Counted from the first letter of the stretch, positions 55,586 through 64,000 are shown. The stretch is DNA of 64,000 nt from Spirochaetota bacterium (GCA_040768125.1 JAXGNG010000002.1:359291-423290), one strand, 5' to 3'. Made by a program: numbers and translations. The notes: generated by a model from the sequence alone, not told the origin.

Positions 55586-57211
55586 ATGACAACACGCGAC
55601 TCTACCGCCACGAAGGAATGGCAGGCCCTCCGGGTCCACCATGACGAGGTGAAGGGAATGACCCTGGGCGAGCTCTTTGCATCAGATCCCGCCAGGGCGG
55701 GGGCCTTTACGGTCAGTGAGTGCGGCCTTCTGATGGACTATTCAAAAAACCGGGTCACCGCCAGGACAATGGCGCTCCTGAACGATCTTGCCATGTCGCG
55801 CGGCCTTGAAAAGGAAATCGCCCGGATGTTCGGCGGCGAAAAGATAAACGCCACCGAGGGGAGGGCGGTCCTCCATGTCGCCCTGAGGAACCTCGGCGGG
55901 GACCCGATTATCCTTGACGGAATTGACGTGATGCCCGGTGTGCGCGCCGTCCTGGAGAGGATGAGGGAATTCTCCGACGAAATCCGGGACGGGAACTGGA
56001 AGGGTCATACGGGCCGTCCCGTGAGGAATATCGTTAATATCGGCATCGGGGGCTCGGACCTGGGGCCTTCGATGGCAACGGAGGCCCTGGCCTTCTATTC
56101 GCGGCGGGAGCTGCGCTCCTTTTTCGTCTCGAACGTCGACGGAAGCCATATCATGGAGACCCTGCGGGGACTCGATCCCGAGGAGACGCTCTTTATCGTC
56201 GCATCGAAGACCTTCACCACCCAGGAAACCATGGCCAATGCCGCCACGGCGCGGCGATGGGTAGTCGATTCCCTCGGAAGCGATGCCGCCGTCCGCCGGC
56301 ATTTCGTTGCCGTGTCCACCAATTCTTCGGCGGTGGCCGCCTTCGGAATAGACCGCGAGCGAATGTTCGAGTTCTGGGACTGGGTGGGGGGGAGGTACTC
56401 CCTCGCTTCGGCAATAGGCCTTTCGCTGATGATCTCGATAGGTCCGGAGCGTTTCTTCGAAATGCTCGAGGGCATGCATGAGATGGACATGCATTTTCTC
56501 CGGACGCCCTTCACGCGCAACATGCCGGTCATACTCGCCCTTATCGGGATATGGCACGTGAACTTTTTCGGAGCGGAATCCTGCGCGGTACTTCCCTACG
56601 ACCAGTACCTTCGGCGATTCCCCGCCTACCTGCAGCAGGCGGACATGGAATCGAACGGCAAGGGCACCGATCGAGACGGGAACAGGGTCAACTACGCGAC
56701 GGGGCCCGTTGTCTGGGGCGAGCCCGGTACCAACGGGCAACACGCGTTTTACCAGCTCCTTCACCAGGGAACAAGGCTGGTCCCGGTTGATTTCATCGGC
56801 TTCGCGAGCCCCCTCTGGGAGGCGGGGAACCACCACCGGCTTCTTGTGGCGCATATGATCGCCCAGGCCGAGGCACTTGCCTTCGGAAAAAGCGCCGATC
56901 AGCTTCGCGCGGAACACATACCCGAAAGGCTGATCCCCTTCAGGACATTCGAGGGGAACAGGCCCTCCACGGTCATCCTCGCCGATCGACTCGACCCGCG
57001 TACCCTGGGCAAGCTCATCGCGCTTTACGAGCACAAGATATTCGTCCAGGGGATCATCTGGAACATATATTCATTCGACCAGTGGGGAGTGGAACTGGGC
57101 AAGGCCCTGGCGAACAGGATAATTGGTGAATTCGAGCAGGGGCGCTGGCATGACGGGGGCCACGATTCCTCCACGAGCGCCCTGATGCGTTACTGCCTGG
57201 AACGCGGGTAA
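55586..57211 (+). CDS. pgi: glucose-6-phosphate isomerase
   Basis: 541 aa with PGI signature regions ([23 protein letters not shown], catalytic Glu/His/Lys context). The ORF's 5' extension from 55358 is rejected. Confidence 0.9.
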
Positions 57212-57217
57212 ACGGCG

Positions 57218-58141
57218 ATGTCCGCGCGCATGGGTGGTTCAGGCGGCGCAGGGTCGCGCGACGAGTCGAAGCTGCGGCAGTATGACATGCTCATCGCCGA
57301 GGCGAACACCATACGGGAGAAGGACAAGGTCCTCGTCCGGGGGCTCCTGCAGAGCTTTTACGGAAAGAAGCTCAACGTCGGGATCGGCTTCGAGCGCTCG
57401 GCCGGTTCGATTCTTTCCGGAGATTATTTCGACCTCATCAAGCTCCCCGACGGAAACTACCTCTTTATTTTCGCCGACATCAGCGGACACGGTCTTCCCG
57501 CCTATACCACGCTGGTGCGGCTCAGGTCCGCCGTAACCATTTGCGTGGGAGAGACCAGGCGGATCTACGAGCAGGCGGAAACGGTGGACACCGATTTTCT
57601 CGTGCGGGACATCAGCGCGAAGTTCACGGATATAATGGAGGGGGCCAATTCCCAGGATTTCGCCTCCGTGCTCTTCACCTTCATTTACAACGAGGGAGAC
57701 AAGTACCATCTGAGGTTCTATAACCGGAGCATGCTGTTTCCCGTTATTATCCGAAAATTCGAAAGGCGGATCATGGGCGTCTATGATCTCAACAACCATG
57801 AAAAAGGGTGGATCCCGAGAAAGGGGTATCTCCTGAGCGTCGATGTAAAAACCCTCACGGGAGCGGGATACATGGTCACCCCGCCCTGCGAGTTCACTCT
57901 TTATGAGGGCGATTCGATCCTCTATTTCAGCGACGGGATTGTGGAGGCCTGCGATAGGGACCGCAACGGTGATGATTTTGGAATACACCGGATCACGAGG
58001 GTGCTTACTGAATACAATAACCTCATGCCCCAGGTGATCGTGCAGGAACTCTTCACTTCCGTGTACGACCACATCGGTGGCCAGGAGAACCAGAAAGACG
58101 ACATGACGGCAGTCCTCATCGATTTCCCGCACATACGATAG
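57218..58141 (+). CDS. PP2C/SpoIIE-family serine phosphatase
   Basis: Motifs SGDYFD, FADISGHG, FSDGIVEA and DDMTAVLIDF. Starts 6 nt after the pgi stop. Confidence 0.75.
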   Translation: MSARMGGSGGAGSRDESKLRQYDMLIAEANTIREKDKVLVRGLLQSFYGKKLNVGIGFERSAGSILSGDYFDLIKLPDGNYLFIFADISGHGLPAYTTLVRLRSAVTICVGETRRIYEQAETVDTDFLVRDISAKFTDIMEGANSQDFASVLFTFIYNEGDKYHLRFYNRSMLFPVIIRKFERRIMGVYDLNNHEKGWIPRKGYLLSVDVKTLTGAGYMVTPPCEFTLYEGDSILYFSDGIVEACDRDRNGDDFGIHRITRVLTEYNNLMPQVIVQELFTSVYDHIGGQENQKDDMTAVLIDFPHIR

Positions 58142-58225
58142 CCAGGCCCGGAAGAGGGCGCGGCGCCCCGGATGAGATCCGCCACGGCGGGCGCTTCAGG
58201 CCGGTCGATCCGGGCCATAACCGCG

Positions 58226-60250
58226 TCACTTCCGTATACGGCGGAAATACTCCTTCATGTGCTCCCTCGCGTTCAAAACGATATCGCGGTAACGTGCGGT
58301 GATTTCAGGCCGCGCGTGGGCGATGTTGCGCGTTTCCTGGGGGTCGTTTTCAAGGTCATAGAGCTCTTCGAGCATGTCCTTCATCCGGCAGATGTACTTC
58401 CATCGTCCGTCGGCGATCCCGAGAAAGTCATCCTTCCACGAGGTGTGAAGGAGGGCCATCTGGTCCTTTCTGGCGGCGAATATCGGAATGCCCTCCTGCC
58501 TGGGGTCCCGGGGGATTCCGAGGATATCGAGGACCGTGGGGAGGATGTCAATATGCCTCGTGATGCCCCTGTAGGCAACGTGTTTCGGGAACAGCTTCCT
58601 GTTGTAAATGAGGAAGGGGACGTGAACGTTTTCATCGTAGAGAAAGAGGGGATGATTATAGTTCATCCTGTGCTGGTAAAACGCCTCGCCATGGTCGGCG
58701 AAAAGGAAGAGAAGGGTGTTCTCCATGAGGCCCCTTGATTCCAGTTCGTCAATGAGCATGCCGAGGGAGTGGTCGGCGTAGTGGAGGGAGTTGAGATAAT
58801 TGTACCAGTTCCGTTTCTTATAGTCAATTCCATCCGGGATTTCTCCGGTGATCCGGAACGAGGTGTCCGGAATTGCGTAGGGATGGTGGGGATTGACCGG
58901 CATCAGGACCAGGAAATAGGGCTCGTTCCTGTTTTCCTCGATGAATTCGATCGATGGCCTGATCATGGCGCGCTCGTCGACTCCCCATCCGACCTGCCGG
59001 TTGTAGGGCGGGATTCGTATGAGCTGGTTGTAATCGATGATCCGGTCGAACTTCCTGTTCCGGAGAAACCGGTTCTGCCCGGCGTATCCCAGGCCACCCG
59101 TATGGATCAGGCAGGTCCGGTATCCGTGATCGTGCAGAATCTCGGGCATGGTGGGCAGTTCCAGGTCGGGGTGTTTCTGGATCGCCATGTCCTTGGAATA
59201 GAGGCCGTACGCCGAGGTGAAGACCGAGAGGAGCGCGTTTGCCGAGAGGGGATAGTTGCAGTAATGTTTCTTGAAAAAGACGCTGGTCCTTTCAAGCCGG
59301 TGCCACGAGGGGACCACGGGCCTTCCATTGATTTCCATGTCGTAGTACTTCGCGGGCATGGATTCGAAGAAGTAGAGGATGATATTGTAGCGGTCGTTCC
59401 GGGGGATCGCCCCGAGGCGCGGGTTCATCCGGGGTGATTCTATCGAATCCGTGGCGAATCTCCACGTGAATGGCGCGTCAACATCGCTCGATGATGCGGA
59501 GGGGGATTTTTTTTCTTCGCCCGCGAAGAGATTGGCCAGGGGGTGCATTGAAAATTCTCGGAGCATTGAAATCACCGCGGGTGCTTTTACGGCGCCGTGG
59601 CGCGAAGCAATGCGTACGGGAGCCGATGAATCCGTGGCCAGAGACAGCAAGCACAGGATGGATATCGCGGCGGGAGGAAGAAGCCTCAGGACCTGTACCG
59701 TCCTGGTTATGCCGTCCGCACGTCCCGCGTCTCGGGCAAAGCGGGATTCACGCATGATGAGGGCGATATTCAATCCGGTGCCGAGGGCGGCGAGGAGGAA
59801 GAATACAATATAAAAGTCAAGGGTGAATTCCGAGCGCGCTGATTCGACAATGTTGCCCAGGGAGGTGAAATGCTCTCTCCCCGCGTATGACGTCTGGAAT
59901 GTCGTCTCGTAAACCCTGAAAAAATGCAGCGAGAAGAGCATGAAAAAGGAATAGATCGTCTGGATGATGGCCAGGATGCCGCATGAAATCCAACCGGGTT
60001 TTCCCGTGACCATCGCGAGGATGAGAAGGAAAAGAAGCGTTCCGAGCAAGGTAAGGCTGTCAGTGCCGAGCGTGAGGGCAAGGTATTCCGGCAGGCCTGC
60101 CAGTATTCCCGGGTAGATCGATTCGATCTGCCTGTAGACGCTGATTCGGTACAGTCCGTGGACCAGCAGGACGAAGGCTCCGTTCGCGAGAAAGAGGACC
60201 AGGATCGAATCGTAGCGCGTGACCAGCTTTTGCAGGGATTTCCACGTCAT
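58226..60250 (-). CDS. LTA-synthase / phosphoglycerol-transferase-like sulfatase-family membrane protein
   Basis: N-terminal polytopic TM domain followed by an alkaline-phosphatase-superfamily domain (FLFADHGEAF; metal-ligand His/Asp pattern). Confidence 0.75.
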   Translation of the reverse strand: MTWKSLQKLVTRYDSILVLFLANGAFVLLVHGLYRISVYRQIESIYPGILAGLPEYLALTLGTDSLTLLGTLLFLLILAMVTGKPGWISCGILAIIQTIYSFFMLFSLHFFRVYETTFQTSYAGREHFTSLGNIVESARSEFTLDFYIVFFLLAALGTGLNIALIMRESRFARDAGRADGITRTVQVLRLLPPAAISILCLLSLATDSSAPVRIASRHGAVKAPAVISMLREFSMHPLANLFAGEEKKSPSASSSDVDAPFTWRFATDSIESPRMNPRLGAIPRNDRYNIILYFFESMPAKYYDMEINGRPVVPSWHRLERTSVFFKKHYCNYPLSANALLSVFTSAYGLYSKDMAIQKHPDLELPTMPEILHDHGYRTCLIHTGGLGYAGQNRFLRNRKFDRIIDYNQLIRIPPYNRQVGWGVDERAMIRPSIEFIEENRNEPYFLVLMPVNPHHPYAIPDTSFRITGEIPDGIDYKKRNWYNYLNSLHYADHSLGMLIDELESRGLMENTLLFLFADHGEAFYQHRMNYNHPLFLYDENVHVPFLIYNRKLFPKHVAYRGITRHIDILPTVLDILGIPRDPRQEGIPIFAARKDQMALLHTSWKDDFLGIADGRWKYICRMKDMLEELYDLENDPQETRNIAHARPEITARYRDIVLNAREHMKEYFRRIRK

Positions 60251-60361
60251 TTGATGACCTGCCGTTTTTCAATGCCGTGCATGCCGGCGGGATTGCAGGT
60301 TACAAAGAGCCGGGCCCCGCCTTCAGGTCAAGCATTTTGCGCGGGGTTCACGACAGTCGTT

Positions 60362-61273
60362 TCATGCTTTAAAGGCGTAAAGAACCATCGAACTGGTCAT
60401 AGCGAAGTCACCCATGTGGATTTTACCGAGCCAGTGATAGGCCGCGATGCGGGCCCAGGAGCGGTAATCCAGGAGTGAACGGAAATTTCCCCGGGATTTC
60501 TTCAGTTTCGGAATAAGGCCGAATTCAACGGGATGAAAGCTTCGTACCCTGGCGAATCCGCAGCGGAAGAGGGCTTCTGTGAGGTTGCGCCTGGAAAAAT
60601 AGGAGAGGTGACCGGGCATGAAATAGGCGTAGCGATCCCTCAGGAGCCTTGCCTGTAATCCCGCCATGTTCGCGGTCTGTATAACCAGTATTCCGCCGCT
60701 GACCAGAAGGTCGTGGCATTCAACGAGTGCGGAAACGGGGTCCGGGATGTGTTCAAGAAGCTCGATCATTGTGATGGCGGAAAAGAAATTCTTCGGGAAG
60801 GGATGGTCTTCCAGCGTGCCGATATGCATGGCGTCGCCGAATTCACTCCGGGCGAATTTTCCGGAGTATGAGGACAGCTCGATGCCATGGGGGACGAAGT
60901 AGGGTCGCGCCGTCCTGAGAAGTCCGCCGAAGGAAGCCCCCACGTCGAGGATGCTCCCCGGAGGCGCGAAACGCCTCAGGATGGAGATCCTTTTTTCCCA
61001 CACGTGACGCGCGAATTTTTCCGAGACCCTTTCATCGAGGTATGAATAATCAGATTCGCCGGTGTAATAACCCTCCCGGTAGAGCTCCATGATTTCATCG
61101 GAGGACGGGCGGGGATTCCTGAAAAGGAAACCGCAGTCGGCGCAGCAGTCAATCATAAAGGGAGGTTCGTAGCGGGTGATTCGGTACCGGGTCCCGATTT
61201 CGGACCCGCCGCAGAGGGGGCACCTTGCCAGCGTGATTCCTGCACTATTTTCTCTCGCGTTCGTATCGGGCAT
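60362..61273 (-). CDS. class I SAM-dependent methyltransferase with an N-terminal zinc ribbon
   Basis: CPLCGG...CCADCGF zinc ribbon, then methyltransferase motif I ILDVGASFGGL and downstream post-I/II motifs. Confidence 0.7.
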   Translation of the reverse strand: MPDTNARENSAGITLARCPLCGGSEIGTRYRITRYEPPFMIDCCADCGFLFRNPRPSSDEIMELYREGYYTGESDYSYLDERVSEKFARHVWEKRISILRRFAPPGSILDVGASFGGLLRTARPYFVPHGIELSSYSGKFARSEFGDAMHIGTLEDHPFPKNFFSAITMIELLEHIPDPVSALVECHDLLVSGGILVIQTANMAGLQARLLRDRYAYFMPGHLSYFSRRNLTEALFRCGFARVRSFHPVEFGLIPKLKKSRGNFRSLLDYRSWARIAAYHWLGKIHMGDFAMTSSMVLYAFKA

Positions 61274-61287
61274 AGGGACCCCGTGTG

Positions 61288-61932
61288 TCAGGCCCGGGCG
61301 CGGATGACCCAGTGAGAGATGACGGTGCCGGTATCGCCGACAAGGGTCCTTTCCATGAGCCCGTACCTGAATTCCGCGAAAACCGAGAACGCGGATGCCA
61401 TTTCTTCTTCGGTATAAAAGGAAGCGATCGCTCCACTGATGTCATCGACCCCCGTGCGCCAGGTGTCACCGCCCAGGTGGGTGCCCTTTTTCATGTGGGT
61501 ATCTCGCGAGGAGCGCAGCGTCGCGAAGAGATGCCCGCCCCGTGAGAGTATTCTCGATATTTCTGAAAGCATGACGGGGAGATCGTCTTTGCCGGAGTAG
61601 TGCAGGGAACCCCAGGCGATGACGATGTCGGCGCTCTCATCATTGAAGGGAAGACGCGTTATCTCCCCGCACACGAGGTTCGCCCGCGTGTGATTACGCG
61701 CGAGCGCCAGGGCGTTGAAACTCGCGTCGAGGCCGGTGATCCGGGAAATCCCGATGTCATCAAGAAGCCGGAGGTGACGCCCCCCCCCGCAGCCGAGATC
61801 GAAAGCCCATAACCTCTCCGCGGTCTCCGGAGACGGGACGTGTTTCTTAAGAAGGCGCACCAGGTTTTCGTCGGGATATGACAGGTCCGAGCGTTCCCTT
61901 CGATAGTGTTCGTCCCACTCGCGAGTATCCAA
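61288..61932 (-). CDS. class I SAM-dependent methyltransferase
   Basis: Motif I AFDLGCGGGRHL and a Type-11-like core; 214 aa. Confidence 0.7.
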   Translation of the reverse strand: MDTREWDEHYRRERSDLSYPDENLVRLLKKHVPSPETAERLWAFDLGCGGGRHLRLLDDIGISRITGLDASFNALALARNHTRANLVCGEITRLPFNDESADIVIAWGSLHYSGKDDLPVMLSEISRILSRGGHLFATLRSSRDTHMKKGTHLGGDTWRTGVDDISGAIASFYTEEEMASAFSVFAEFRYGLMERTLVGDTGTVISHWVIRARA

Positions 61933-61935
61933 CGT

Positions 61936-63165
61936 TCACTTGATCCTGATATTGTAGCTTTCCGCGGCGATTCCCGCACGTTCGACGGCCTCGTCGAGGG
62001 TGCGTCCCGTTACCGCGACGACACCGATCCGGTCATGATTGGTGGTGGGCTCACTGATGGGTGAACCGATTTCCTTGAATATCCTCGAAAAGAGAATTCC
62101 CCTGACCTTGCGGGGCCCTTCGGGATTGAATGAGGCAAGGACCCCGGGCGTCCCGGTGATATATTTCACCACGACCGGCTTCTGGCGCGCGGAACCGGGG
62201 GGTGCGAATCCGCGGCCCGACATGGATTGTATCGATTCACGAATGATATGGTACCCGTTATGGGCCGGGATAAGCACATCAGGGATGAATTCGCCCCCGA
62301 ACTCGGGGACGGCCTCGATGATGCAGGGGCCCGTTTCGGAGATGACGCATTCCATGATGAGGGGCGATGAGACGATCCCGAAGGCATCCGCGATTTTCTG
62401 GCCCATTCCCGATATCGACTCAGCCAGGGCGCTGTGACGCGACGGCGCCGCGTGCATGGTGTCGACGAAATAGGGCGGGGGCGACGTTATCTTGTCAGTC
62501 ATGGCCGCGAGGTGATAGGTGCCTTCATGGATAACCCCCGCCGCGATTATTTCATCACCGGGGATGAAGCGCTCAAGGATGATGTCCGAATCCCCCGCCA
62601 TGAGGGGAACGACGTGACGCCTGAACTCGGGGAGACTCTCGATGAGGCGGACATTCATCTTGGCGTGGCCGATAGCGGGTTTCATGACGATCGGGAAGGC
62701 CTGTTCGGGGATCGTGAGATTCCCGTCGCGGGATGAAACCGGAACCGCCGGTGGAGTCGGCAGTGAATGTTTGCGCAGGATAGACTTCATCTTTCGCTTG
62801 TTAAGGAAAATACCCGCCGAAGAAAAGGGGAGGAAGGGTAGCCTGAACTTTTCGGCGAGGTACGCCGTGGTCTGCATGGCGGGTCCGTAAGACTTGGTCA
62901 TTATCCCGAGGATCTCGCCGTCCACGAGGAGTTCCAGGAGCTTTTTATGAATGGCCGCGTGGTTGCTGATGGATTCCTGGATTTTAAGGTCGCAGTGGCA
63001 GAAGCCGGGAGCCGAGGCGTTTGTATCTACCCCGATCACCTGGAATCCCAGTTTTTTGGCTTCCCTGATGAGCGGTAACTGGTTCAGGCCGGCGCCAATT
63101 GAAACGAACAACTGGATTGGCTGATGTGTGCGCATGCGCGAGAACATGGCGTATACTCCGACCAT
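61936..63165 (-). CDS. ATP-grasp domain protein
   Basis: Rossmann-like N-domain (LFVSIGAGLNQLPLIREAKKLGFQVIGVD) then ATP-grasp core (FPIVMKP...ERFIPGDEI). Lies 3 nt upstream of the next methyltransferase. Confidence 0.65.
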   Translation of the reverse strand: MVGVYAMFSRMRTHQPIQLFVSIGAGLNQLPLIREAKKLGFQVIGVDTNASAPGFCHCDLKIQESISNHAAIHKKLLELLVDGEILGIMTKSYGPAMQTTAYLAEKFRLPFLPFSSAGIFLNKRKMKSILRKHSLPTPPAVPVSSRDGNLTIPEQAFPIVMKPAIGHAKMNVRLIESLPEFRRHVVPLMAGDSDIILERFIPGDEIIAAGVIHEGTYHLAAMTDKITSPPPYFVDTMHAAPSRHSALAESISGMGQKIADAFGIVSSPLIMECVISETGPCIIEAVPEFGGEFIPDVLIPAHNGYHIIRESIQSMSGRGFAPPGSARQKPVVVKYITGTPGVLASFNPEGPRKVRGILFSRIFKEIGSPISEPTTNHDRIGVVAVTGRTLDEAVERAGIAAESYNIRIK

Positions 63166-63471
63166 TGATGGGCAACGTCAACCAGAATACGGGCCATGAT
63201 ACGCAAAGTCAATATCTATTACGGGACAAGACGGGTGGCGGTGAGTAAAGTGATCTTCCGGCACCGTTAGTCACGGAAGTGTGTCCGGGGGCAGAGCGGG
63301 ACGGGGTAAATATATAATATGCAAATTAAAATAAAGCGCCCGTCTCACGCCGTGTCAGGTCATGGTCCGGGTTAACGATCGGGGTTTATGATTGAGAGGT
63401 CCGTAAATATTTTACATGCTGTGATGAAAAAATCGTTTCAAATTATCCACGTCGTGCGATAATAATGTATA

Positions 63472-63508
63472 TTGACATTGACGGCGCATCAGGATGCCGT
63501 CAAAATGG
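63472..63508 (+). promoter_or_regulatory. promoter-like TTGACA/TTGACG -35 overlapping an inverted repeat TTGACGGCGCATC|AGGATGCCGTCAA (candidate operator), upstream of the mcsA-like gene
   Basis: Near-perfect palindrome TTGACGGC..GCCGTCAA; the first 18 nt are shared with 27772–27790. Confidence 0.4.
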
Positions 63509-63578
63509 CATGGACGGCCTGCAAAGGCTCTGTGCGCTCAACGCGAAAAACGGAAAGGAAGGTTGCAGCGAAAGGACC

Positions 63579-64000
63579 ATGTATTGCGAACGATGCAGAG
63601 AAAGCGAGGCGACCATTCACCTCACGGAAATCATTAAGGATGTGAAATCCGAACTGCATCTCTGTGAGAAGTGCGCCCGCGATATAGGGCTTAATGCGAA
63701 ACTCTCGAACTTTTCCCTTTCGATCCCGGAGATGCTTTCGTTCCTTGACGTGAACGAGATCGAGGGGTGCCCTGAGGGGAGCGCCTGCGCAACCTGCGGG
63801 GTAACATTCCTGGACTACAGCCGGGAGGGCAGGCTCGGATGCCCTGATTGCTACGAGTACCTCGGCGCGTCCCTTCACTCCGTTATCGCGGGATACCACG
63901 GAGCTACGCGACATGCGGGCAAGCATCCCCTTGCCGCTGATGATTCCGGCGCCTGTGTCCGTCCATCCGGGGATGGCATGCGGCCCGCGAGGATGAAGGC
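63579..64000 (+). CDS. McsA-like UvrB/UvrC-motif zinc-finger protein (3' end outside the window)
   Basis: MYCERCRESEATIHLTEIIKDVKSELHLCEKCAR and a second CxxC pair (CATCG...CPDCY), as in McsA/YacH-type proteins. The frame is open to the window end. A GGAAAGGA ribosome-binding site precedes it. The antisense ORF 63489..63926 is rejected. Confidence 0.6.
   Translation, partial: MYCERCRESEATIHLTEIIKDVKSELHLCEKCARDIGLNAKLSNFSLSIPEMLSFLDVNEIEGCPEGSACATCGVTFLDYSREGRLGCPDCYEYLGASLHSVIAGYHGATRHAGKHPLAADDSGACVRPSGDGMRPARMK

Follow-up and report, generated by a model that had tools for sequence, protein, structure and literature searches.

Two groups of described enzymes are close to proteins considered here, namely the L-amino acid ligases (LALs) of the ATP-grasp type and the lipoteichoic acid synthase LtaS with its relatives. 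In the LAL LdmS, an Arg residue holds the carboxylate substrate in position and lends stability to both the acyl-phosphate and the tetrahedral intermediate, and the R305A variant shows no measurable activity (PMC9486568). For LtaS, the metal, nucleophile and phosphate-binding residues are listed in PMC7576196, according to which Ser can act as a nucleophile in the alkaline-phosphatase superfamily. Here, we analysed a window of 64,000 nucleotides (nt) from a Spirochaetota bacterium (GCA_040768125.1 JAXGNG010000002.1:359291-423290), in which four genes on the minus strand, at 58226-63165, encode an ATP-grasp enzyme with an LAL fold (AG), a small class I S-adenosylmethionine (SAM)-dependent methyltransferase (MT1), another class I SAM-dependent methyltransferase with an N-terminal C4 zinc ribbon (ZnMT) and an LtaS/OpgB-like membrane enzyme (the LtaS-like protein). 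The four genes form a real operon of an uncultured Leptospirales-type spirochaete, and its ancient selected unit is the cytoplasmic triad AG-MT1-ZnMT, because the distant loci L170 and L171 keep this triad without an LtaS-like gene. The LtaS-like gene is a later association, restricted to some lineages.

The list of open reading frames (ORFs) bears out a preliminary description of this stretch, which had reported four tightly packed co-directional genes with gaps of 3, 14 and 111 nt. AG lies at 61936..63147 (-), MT1 at 61288..61932 (-), ZnMT at 60362..61273 (-) and the clade-specific fourth gene, which encodes the LtaS-like protein, at 58226..60250 (-); the last three products have 214, 303 and 674 amino acids (aa), respectively. 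MT1 begins with a TTG codon that sits 3 nt past the AG stop. AG is listed as an ORF of 409 aa (61936-63165), and its true start is probably the ATG at 63147, because the homologues are 403-405 aa long. We found neither promoter-like nor terminator-like sites inside the gaps between the four genes, and the 3- and 14-nt spacing together with the lack of a terminator-like site fits co-translation and co-transcription. The closest public locus, L005, comes from an uncultured Leptospirales metagenome-assembled genome (MAG), with proteins 91-97% identical to those of the window. The tblastn match to AG in L005 (3924-5239) is split, its best segment spanning 293 residues only, which suggests a frameshift or an assembly error of that record.

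The conservation of gene order was evaluated by running the four window proteins with tblastn against 80 species-level Spirochaetota genome loci, inspected as 20-kb stretches, and by clustering the ORFs. All 80 loci were found with the AG profile and belong to Spirochaetota or Leptospirales MAGs. MT1 lies directly after AG in 76 of the 77 informative genome loci, while the flanks vary widely, and it adjoins AG also in the distant relatives L168, L170 and L171. Of 70 genome loci, 30 have ZnMT directly after MT1, 10 have it at another place no more than 10 kb away, and the remaining 30 lack it over that distance. The order AG-MT1-ZnMT is kept where the genes on both sides differ. In L170 (60% GC), AG, MT1 and ZnMT are 35%, 36% and 41% identical to the window proteins, the genes overlap and the flanks are of the TetR type. 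In L171 (46% GC), the corresponding identities are 30%, 37% and 42%, the gaps are 3 and 7 nt, and the triad has as its upstream neighbour a flagellar rod gene in divergent orientation and as its downstream neighbour a convergent gene. No LtaS-like gene was found downstream of the triad in either of these distant loci. L168 (AG 33% identical) carries AG and then, at the contig end, the start of an MT1 orthologue with the hallmark motifs of the family, and L172, the sole context inspected for an AG relative of the Gln variant described below, has no methyltransferase partner.

The distribution of the LtaS-like gene is narrower. About 20 of the 80 genome loci have it after ZnMT, and all of these belong to the branch closest to the window, in which AG is at least 50% identical; about 30 loci have no copy within 10 kb, and in many lineages the run stops at ZnMT and convergent genes lie beyond. 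The preliminary description had called for a check of co-occurrence in related genomes, and we found the complete four-gene order in about 20 of the 80 species-level genomes and in 10 metagenome contigs, only in the window's own clade. The same branch also keeps its housekeeping flanks (mcsA-mcsB-clpC and aconitase genes at one end, genes for citrate synthase, SpoIIE and PGI at the other), so that the four-gene order within it is not independent evidence of a shared function.

We also scanned metagenome contigs with a ZnMT profile, which gave 43 loci informative on both sides. ZnMT has MT1 upstream and the LtaS-like gene downstream in 10 of them, only MT1 in 12, only the LtaS-like gene in three and neither in 18; counted from the side of MT1, it follows that gene directly in 22 of the 43. 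Most of the stand-alone copies belong to a single branch of a ZnMT tree and look like a lineage that split the triad; whole-genome co-occurrence was checked in one genome (L054/L085). This complete chromosome has all four genes in two places, with AG-MT1 at ~1.94 Mb (L054) and ZnMT plus the LtaS-like gene at ~1.74 Mb (L085). In L085, 33 nt separate the ZnMT orthologue (54% identity) from the LtaS-like orthologue (43%) downstream of it, and the pair is ~200 kb away from AG-MT1. Pairs of ZnMT and the LtaS-like gene with unrelated flanks were also found in L112/L113 and L160, and L087 has an LtaS-like orthologue without any methyltransferase neighbour.

AG matches ATP-grasp_4 (1.2e-9) and LAL_C2 (4.8e-8) in Pfam. 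Its AlphaFold model has a predicted local distance difference test (pLDDT) score of 91.9, and the top Foldseek matches in the PDB are the LALs 3vot, 4wd3 and 3vmm, with TM-scores of ~0.7-0.8. The fold neighbours comprise BL00235, RizA and BacD as well as the unassigned ‘GAR synthetase’ 4dim; sequence profiles agree, and the best sequence match is 3vot. Thus, on the comparison with D-Ala-D-Ala ligase (Ddl) or RimK that the preliminary description had recommended, AG is neither and has instead an LAL fold that lacks the LAL catalytic Arg. The solved relatives 3vot, 4dim, 4wd3 and BacD have E-x-x-x-R after the Mg2+-binding Glu, whereas AG reads E-A-V-P-E-F-G-G-E (E284-A-V-P-E288). Glu288 (codon at ~62302-62304, -) therefore stands where the catalytic Arg is expected, four residues past the Mg2+-binding acid (R328 in BacD, R305 in LdmS), while the acidic residues for ATP and Mg2+ are retained. 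Glu occupies this position in 120 of 120 database homologues and in 104 of 104 locus ORFs, the most divergent included.

At E<=1e-3, an exhaustive HMMER search with AG returned 5947 relatives, of which 109 also pass E<=1e-30. When the Arg/Glu position is read in the 150 best cluster representatives, 81 have Glu, 47 Arg, 11 Gln and five Asp, and the Arg forms have weaker scores only. Ten relatives of the Glu, Gln and Asp variants were scanned against NCBIfam, and none scored above a family cut-off, so the clade remains unnamed. AG is thus LAL-like in fold and sits in a large uncharacterised Glu clade that may have a different chemistry.

The class I SAM-binding core that had been proposed for both methyltransferases, of the Rossmann type, was confirmed by Pfam (Methyltransf_11, 23 and 25) and by the conserved glycine-rich motifs (motif I) DLGCGGGRH and LDVGASFGG. 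MT1 matches Methyltransf_11 at 6.6e-21 and has a model with pLDDT 89.2. It has 248 homologues, which are 194-226 aa long among the matches listed and share many invariant polar and aromatic residues; a search for fusions (“Rosetta stone” proteins) among these listed homologues found none, all being single-domain. Foldseek and profile searches relate MT1 only to generic, mostly unassigned small-molecule methyltransferases. ZnMT matches Methyltransf_23 at 7.5e-17 and is the most conserved of the four proteins, with 64% mean column identity. The zinc ribbon predicted for its N-terminus holds up, as C18, C21, C44 and C47 are invariant in 27 orthologues, and ZnMT has in addition a conserved C-terminal extension.

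For both methyltransferases, the profile matches to PDB sequences are confined to the SAM-binding core. Over this core, the ZnMT profile reaches structures of UbiG and of phosphoethanolamine and phosphatidylethanolamine N-methyltransferases (E 1e-7 to 1e-10), with weak matches to phospholipid and phospho-base N-methyltransferases (8ys9, 4.9e-7; PMT-2, 1.6e-7). We treat this similarity as a lead and not as evidence. The NCBIfam scores stay below the cut-offs for BioC (39.5 vs 184.95), UbiG (30.2 vs 102.95), UbiE (30.1 vs 216) and SDMT (17.9 vs 550). None of AG, MT1 and ZnMT has a segment that looks transmembrane.

The fourth protein is polytopic, as had been expected, with five hydrophobic segments in its first 205 residues (15-33, 65-83, 88-106, 148-166 and 187-205), ahead of a periplasm-facing domain of the alkaline-phosphatase superfamily. 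The assignment to the LTA-synthase-like group is likewise borne out by Pfam, with Sulfatase PF00884 (2.9e-46, residues 289-579) followed by SGSH_C, and the best solved relative is the Listeria lipoteichoic acid primase LtaP (4uop, 5e-21), aligned over residues 288-581. Its C-terminal third aligns with S1 sulfatases. E296, S336, H455/H456 and D519/H520 are invariant in 30 homologues and are matched to the LtaS metal and phosphate-binding residues and, with S336 as a candidate, to the nucleophile (PMC7576196). The metal ligands (Glu, Asp-His) and the phosphate-binding His are present, with E296, D519/H520 and H455/H456 aligned with LtaP positions. The nucleophile candidate is the invariant Ser336 in P-L-S-A-N, and the Thr of LtaP falls in a two-residue alignment gap at this point. 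In this region, which reads HYCNYPLSANALLSVFT (NYPLSANALLS), there is no Cys/Ser-x-Pro-x-Arg motif, and the identity of a formylglycine (S1) sulfatase was rejected because this motif is missing. The protein retains the metal ligands of the LtaS/EptA group, together with a candidate for the nucleophile. Its NCBIfam scores are below cut-off for LtaS (70.7 vs 970), OpgB (29.7 vs 572) and EptA (18.8 vs 561), and none of the four proteins of the locus reaches a curated NCBIfam cut-off, all matches being far below.

All four genes are complete in the window because divergent and convergent genes bound the cluster. Upstream lies a divergent mcsA-like gene (63579..64000, +), which is cut by the window end and was recognised by translation and by the UVR domain in relatives; downstream, the ORF list gives a convergent SpoIIE-type phosphatase gene (57218-58141, +). 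An ORF of 145 aa at 63489-63926 (-) overlaps the mcsA-like gene on the opposite strand and is most likely its shadow and not a gene. The region upstream of AG had been suggested as the site of the promoter and placed at 63166-63470; the intergenic region in fact covers 63148-63578 (431 nt), and it does contain a promoter-like pair. By a consensus scan, TTGACT-17 nt-TATTCT at 63212-63184 (-) has 9 of 12 consensus matches, and we regard 63176..63212 (-) as the probable promoter region of the operon. The pair overlaps the conserved block TATTCTGGTTGACG (63189-63176, -), the window's version of a block (A)TAATCTTGTTGACG which, in the four-gene clade, is located 30-45 nt ahead of the AG start. Of 57 related loci, 18 carry the core CTTGTTGAC unchanged, and others have close variants of it; the block was seen at the matching position in L003, L007-L015, L080, L082, L088-L093 and L103. 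It may be a candidate -10 element plus operator or, alternatively, the -35 element of a promoter that may yield a nearly leaderless mRNA. Scanned against Rfam at E<=1, the stretch 57000-64000 yielded one chance-level snoRNA match only, with no known riboswitch or leader.

In the relatives, the mcsA-like gene is followed by mcsB, of the protein arginine kinase type, and then clpC, with UVR, ATP-gua_Ptrans/McsB_C and Clp AAA domains. Of 81 genome loci, 44 have the divergent mcsA-AG arrangement, although their downstream contexts are of several kinds, and the arrangement could reflect inherited synteny or shared regulation. Searches of the mcsA-AG intergenic region for CIRCE and CtsR boxes found nothing relevant. 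In L168, L171 and L172, on three separate contigs, a divergent flagellar basal-body rod gene (Flg_bb_rod) lies upstream of AG and occupies the place that mcsA has in the spirochaete family.

Other arrangements around the methyltransferase genes were annotated by eye. In one lineage (L030, L038, L066, L078, L083 and L084), a co-directional run ~3-7 kb downstream of AG-MT1 ends with ZnMT and also contains genes for a DUF785-like putative protease, a transglutaminase-like protein with seven transmembrane segments and a RimK-like ATP-grasp ligase; a convergent citrate synthase gene stands between this run and AG-MT1, a few kb further upstream. In L125, L134, L135, L136 and L148, a second ZnMT paralogue stands four genes downstream of the AG-MT1-ZnMT triad; the genes in between and beyond it look like those for an outer-membrane-barrel-like protein, an FAD-linked oxidase that resembles alkyl-DHAP synthase and two small membrane proteins, both polytopic. 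The neighbours in other lineages, recognised by eye from representative sequences, include ArgC, PtsI, EF-P, Xaa-Pro aminopeptidase, the NAD(P)HX repair enzyme, an outer-membrane barrel, a HAD phosphatase and the DUF785/transglutaminase/RimK-like trio. These other-lineage neighbours look like unrelated housekeeping genes that give no functional clue.

Our preferred reading, which we hold tentatively and rate a little below an even chance, is that the triad AG-MT1-ZnMT is an autonomous cytoplasmic unit making a small, multiply methylated, amide- or ester-linked polar compound, and that the LtaS-like protein is an envelope phosphotransferase that joined it in some lineages. AG would spend ATP to activate two small polar substrates and link them by an amide or ester bond, possibly with a non-canonical mode of substrate recognition, and MT1 and ZnMT would then methylate its substrate or its product to give the multiply methylated compound. 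The LtaS-like enzyme would most likely take a phospho-alcohol head group from a lipid of the membrane and pass it on to an acceptor in the envelope. The gene order, domains, conservation pattern, fold and active-site residues described above are observed, and this chemistry, the product and any coupling between triad and transferase are inferred. Several points weigh against such a unit. ZnMT stands alone in the 18 metagenome loci mentioned, and its junctions with the LtaS-like gene in several contexts argue against full independence of the transferase. The change from Arg to Glu may indicate that AG is perhaps no carboxylate-amine ligase at all, and MT1 and ZnMT match generic class I models only.

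It is possible, though in our view less likely, that all four genes form a single pathway, in which the triad builds and methylates a polar substituent on a membrane-lipid head group and the LtaS-like enzyme transfers this phospho-head group to a lipid or glycan of the periplasm or outer membrane. The tight co-directional packing in the window's clade agrees with this, as do the role of ZnMT as a shared neighbour (of AG-MT1 in some lineages, directly upstream of the LtaS-like gene in L085, L112/L113 and L160) and its weak profile matches to 8ys9 and PMT-2. Known relatives of the LtaS type take phospholipids as donors. One of them, GacH, reportedly decorates a glycan (10.1101/337519). However, the distant triads and the many lineages in which the run ends at ZnMT lack the fourth gene at this place, the order within the clade could be inherited synteny along with the housekeeping flanks, and the methyltransferase matches are confined to the SAM-binding core. 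The dedicated four-gene pathway of the preliminary description therefore stands in part: the AG-MT1(-ZnMT) linkage is deep, whereas the LtaS-like gene is linked only in the window's own clade, where the flanks are conserved too. Its further proposal of an installation on an envelope lipid or glycan is the weaker part, and the triad occurs without the LtaS-like gene, but the ZnMT-LtaS-like pairs located apart from AG-MT1 keep the link plausible. In the most specific form of this pathway, which we think unlikely, the Glu-variant AG would produce, together with the two methyltransferases, a methylated polar head group or metabolite of a hitherto unknown kind, and in Leptospirales-type spirochaetes the LtaS-like enzyme would install it on an envelope lipid or glycan.

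The functional unit could also be smaller than the triad. AG and MT1 might be the only functional pair, with ZnMT an independent housekeeping methyltransferase (e.g., for RNA or lipid), the LtaS-like protein an independent envelope enzyme and their adjacency a leftover of ancestral order. The MT1-ZnMT junction (30/70) is indeed no commoner than the presumably non-operonic divergent mcsA-AG junction (44/81), ZnMT is highly conserved and often stands alone, and zinc ribbons are common in nucleic-acid-binding methyltransferases. We nevertheless consider this improbable, since the triad survives with overlapping or 3-7 nt-spaced genes at 30-35% AG identity and in unrelated contexts, neutral synteny is not expected to persist over such divergence, and the triad persists where both flanks have changed. 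A connection with the other side of the locus, in which AG modifies a macromolecule (e.g., a protein or a peptidoglycan precursor, to which it would attach an amino acid) and is co-regulated with the divergent McsA-McsB-ClpC genes of protein quality control, would agree with the frequent mcsA-AG arrangement across several downstream contexts, and certain ATP-grasp enzymes are known to attach side-chain amino acids to precursors of peptidoglycan. Against it, AG-MT1 occurs without mcsA in about 37 loci, a flagellar rod gene adjoins AG in the three distant contigs, no CIRCE or CtsR-type operator was found in the intergenic region, and the nearest folds of AG are small-molecule ligases; we regard it as very unlikely. 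Finally, the closeness of the AG fold to BacD, RizA and BL00235 recalls the LAL-based bacilysin and rhizocticin pathways, and the locus might by analogy be a gene cluster for a secondary metabolite, namely a methylated dipeptide antibiotic. The whole spirochaete lineage retains the unit amid housekeeping genes, no genes for precursor synthesis, export or immunity were found nearby in the loci inspected, and AG is without the LAL catalytic Arg, so that this explanation is hardly credible.

All four proteins belong to well-known superfamilies, so the locus is not categorically new, and none can be assigned to a characterised family. The unit as such appears undescribed: literature searches found no account of it, in agreement with the earlier remark that this gene set is not a described pathway and with NCBIfam scores far below the cut-offs throughout. 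The ATP-grasp clade with Glu for Arg is a new variant and points to a different mode of substrate recognition or a different reaction. The strict AG-MT1 pairing and the frequent pairing with ZnMT define a compact, testable three-gene set. If the LtaS-like enzyme uses the product of the triad, environmental spirochaetes would have an unknown envelope modification, and a head group installed on the envelope would be a new decoration in a diderm phylum, made through a new catalytic variant of the LAL fold. If it does not, the locus is an ordinary uncharacterised small-molecule module beside an unrelated membrane enzyme. We see no link to a long-standing question.

Compared with described methylation pathways, the locus resembles those of GSMT/SDMT (for glycine betaine), PmtA or phosphoethanolamine N-methyltransferase (PMT) and UbiG/UbiE in that two different class I methyltransferases are encoded per operon, and the weak profile matches to UbiG, PMT and PmtA structures cover the SAM-binding core only; those pathways are without an ATP-grasp enzyme. 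Mycosporine-like amino acid clusters have an O-methyltransferase and the ATP-grasp enzyme MysC, which act on a small molecule. They share with our locus the pairing of a methyltransferase with an ATP-grasp enzyme and differ in the ATP-grasp subfamily; no DDGS/EEVS (dehydroquinate-synthase-like) gene was found among the neighbours in the window or in ~170 related loci. A possible link of DsyGD, which acts in dimethylsulfoniopropionate synthesis, to an ATP-grasp enzyme was dropped, as the paper nowhere mentions ATP-grasp.

With the formylglycine (S1) sulfatases, the LtaS-like protein shares PF00884 and an alignment in the C-terminal half, and it differs from them by the missing motif and by its membrane anchor of five transmembrane segments. 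With LtaS/LtaP, OpgB and GacH it shares the architecture in which five N-terminal transmembrane segments precede an extracytoplasmic PF00884 domain. It keeps the Glu, Asp-His and His active-site positions of LtaS, has Ser336 as nucleophile candidate where LtaS has Thr (T300), and adds a sulfatase-type C-terminal subdomain (SGSH_C, motif LYDLENDPQE). Its host, a diderm spirochaete not known to produce lipoteichoic acid, differs as well. AG, in turn, shares with the LALs BacD/YwfE, RizA, BL00235 and LdmS the fold, the ATP-grasp_4 and LAL_C2 domains and the acidic residues for ATP and Mg2+. It is set apart from them by identities of 14-21% only, by the invariant Glu in place of the carboxylate-binding catalytic Arg, and by a housekeeping genomic setting with an obligate methyltransferase partner.

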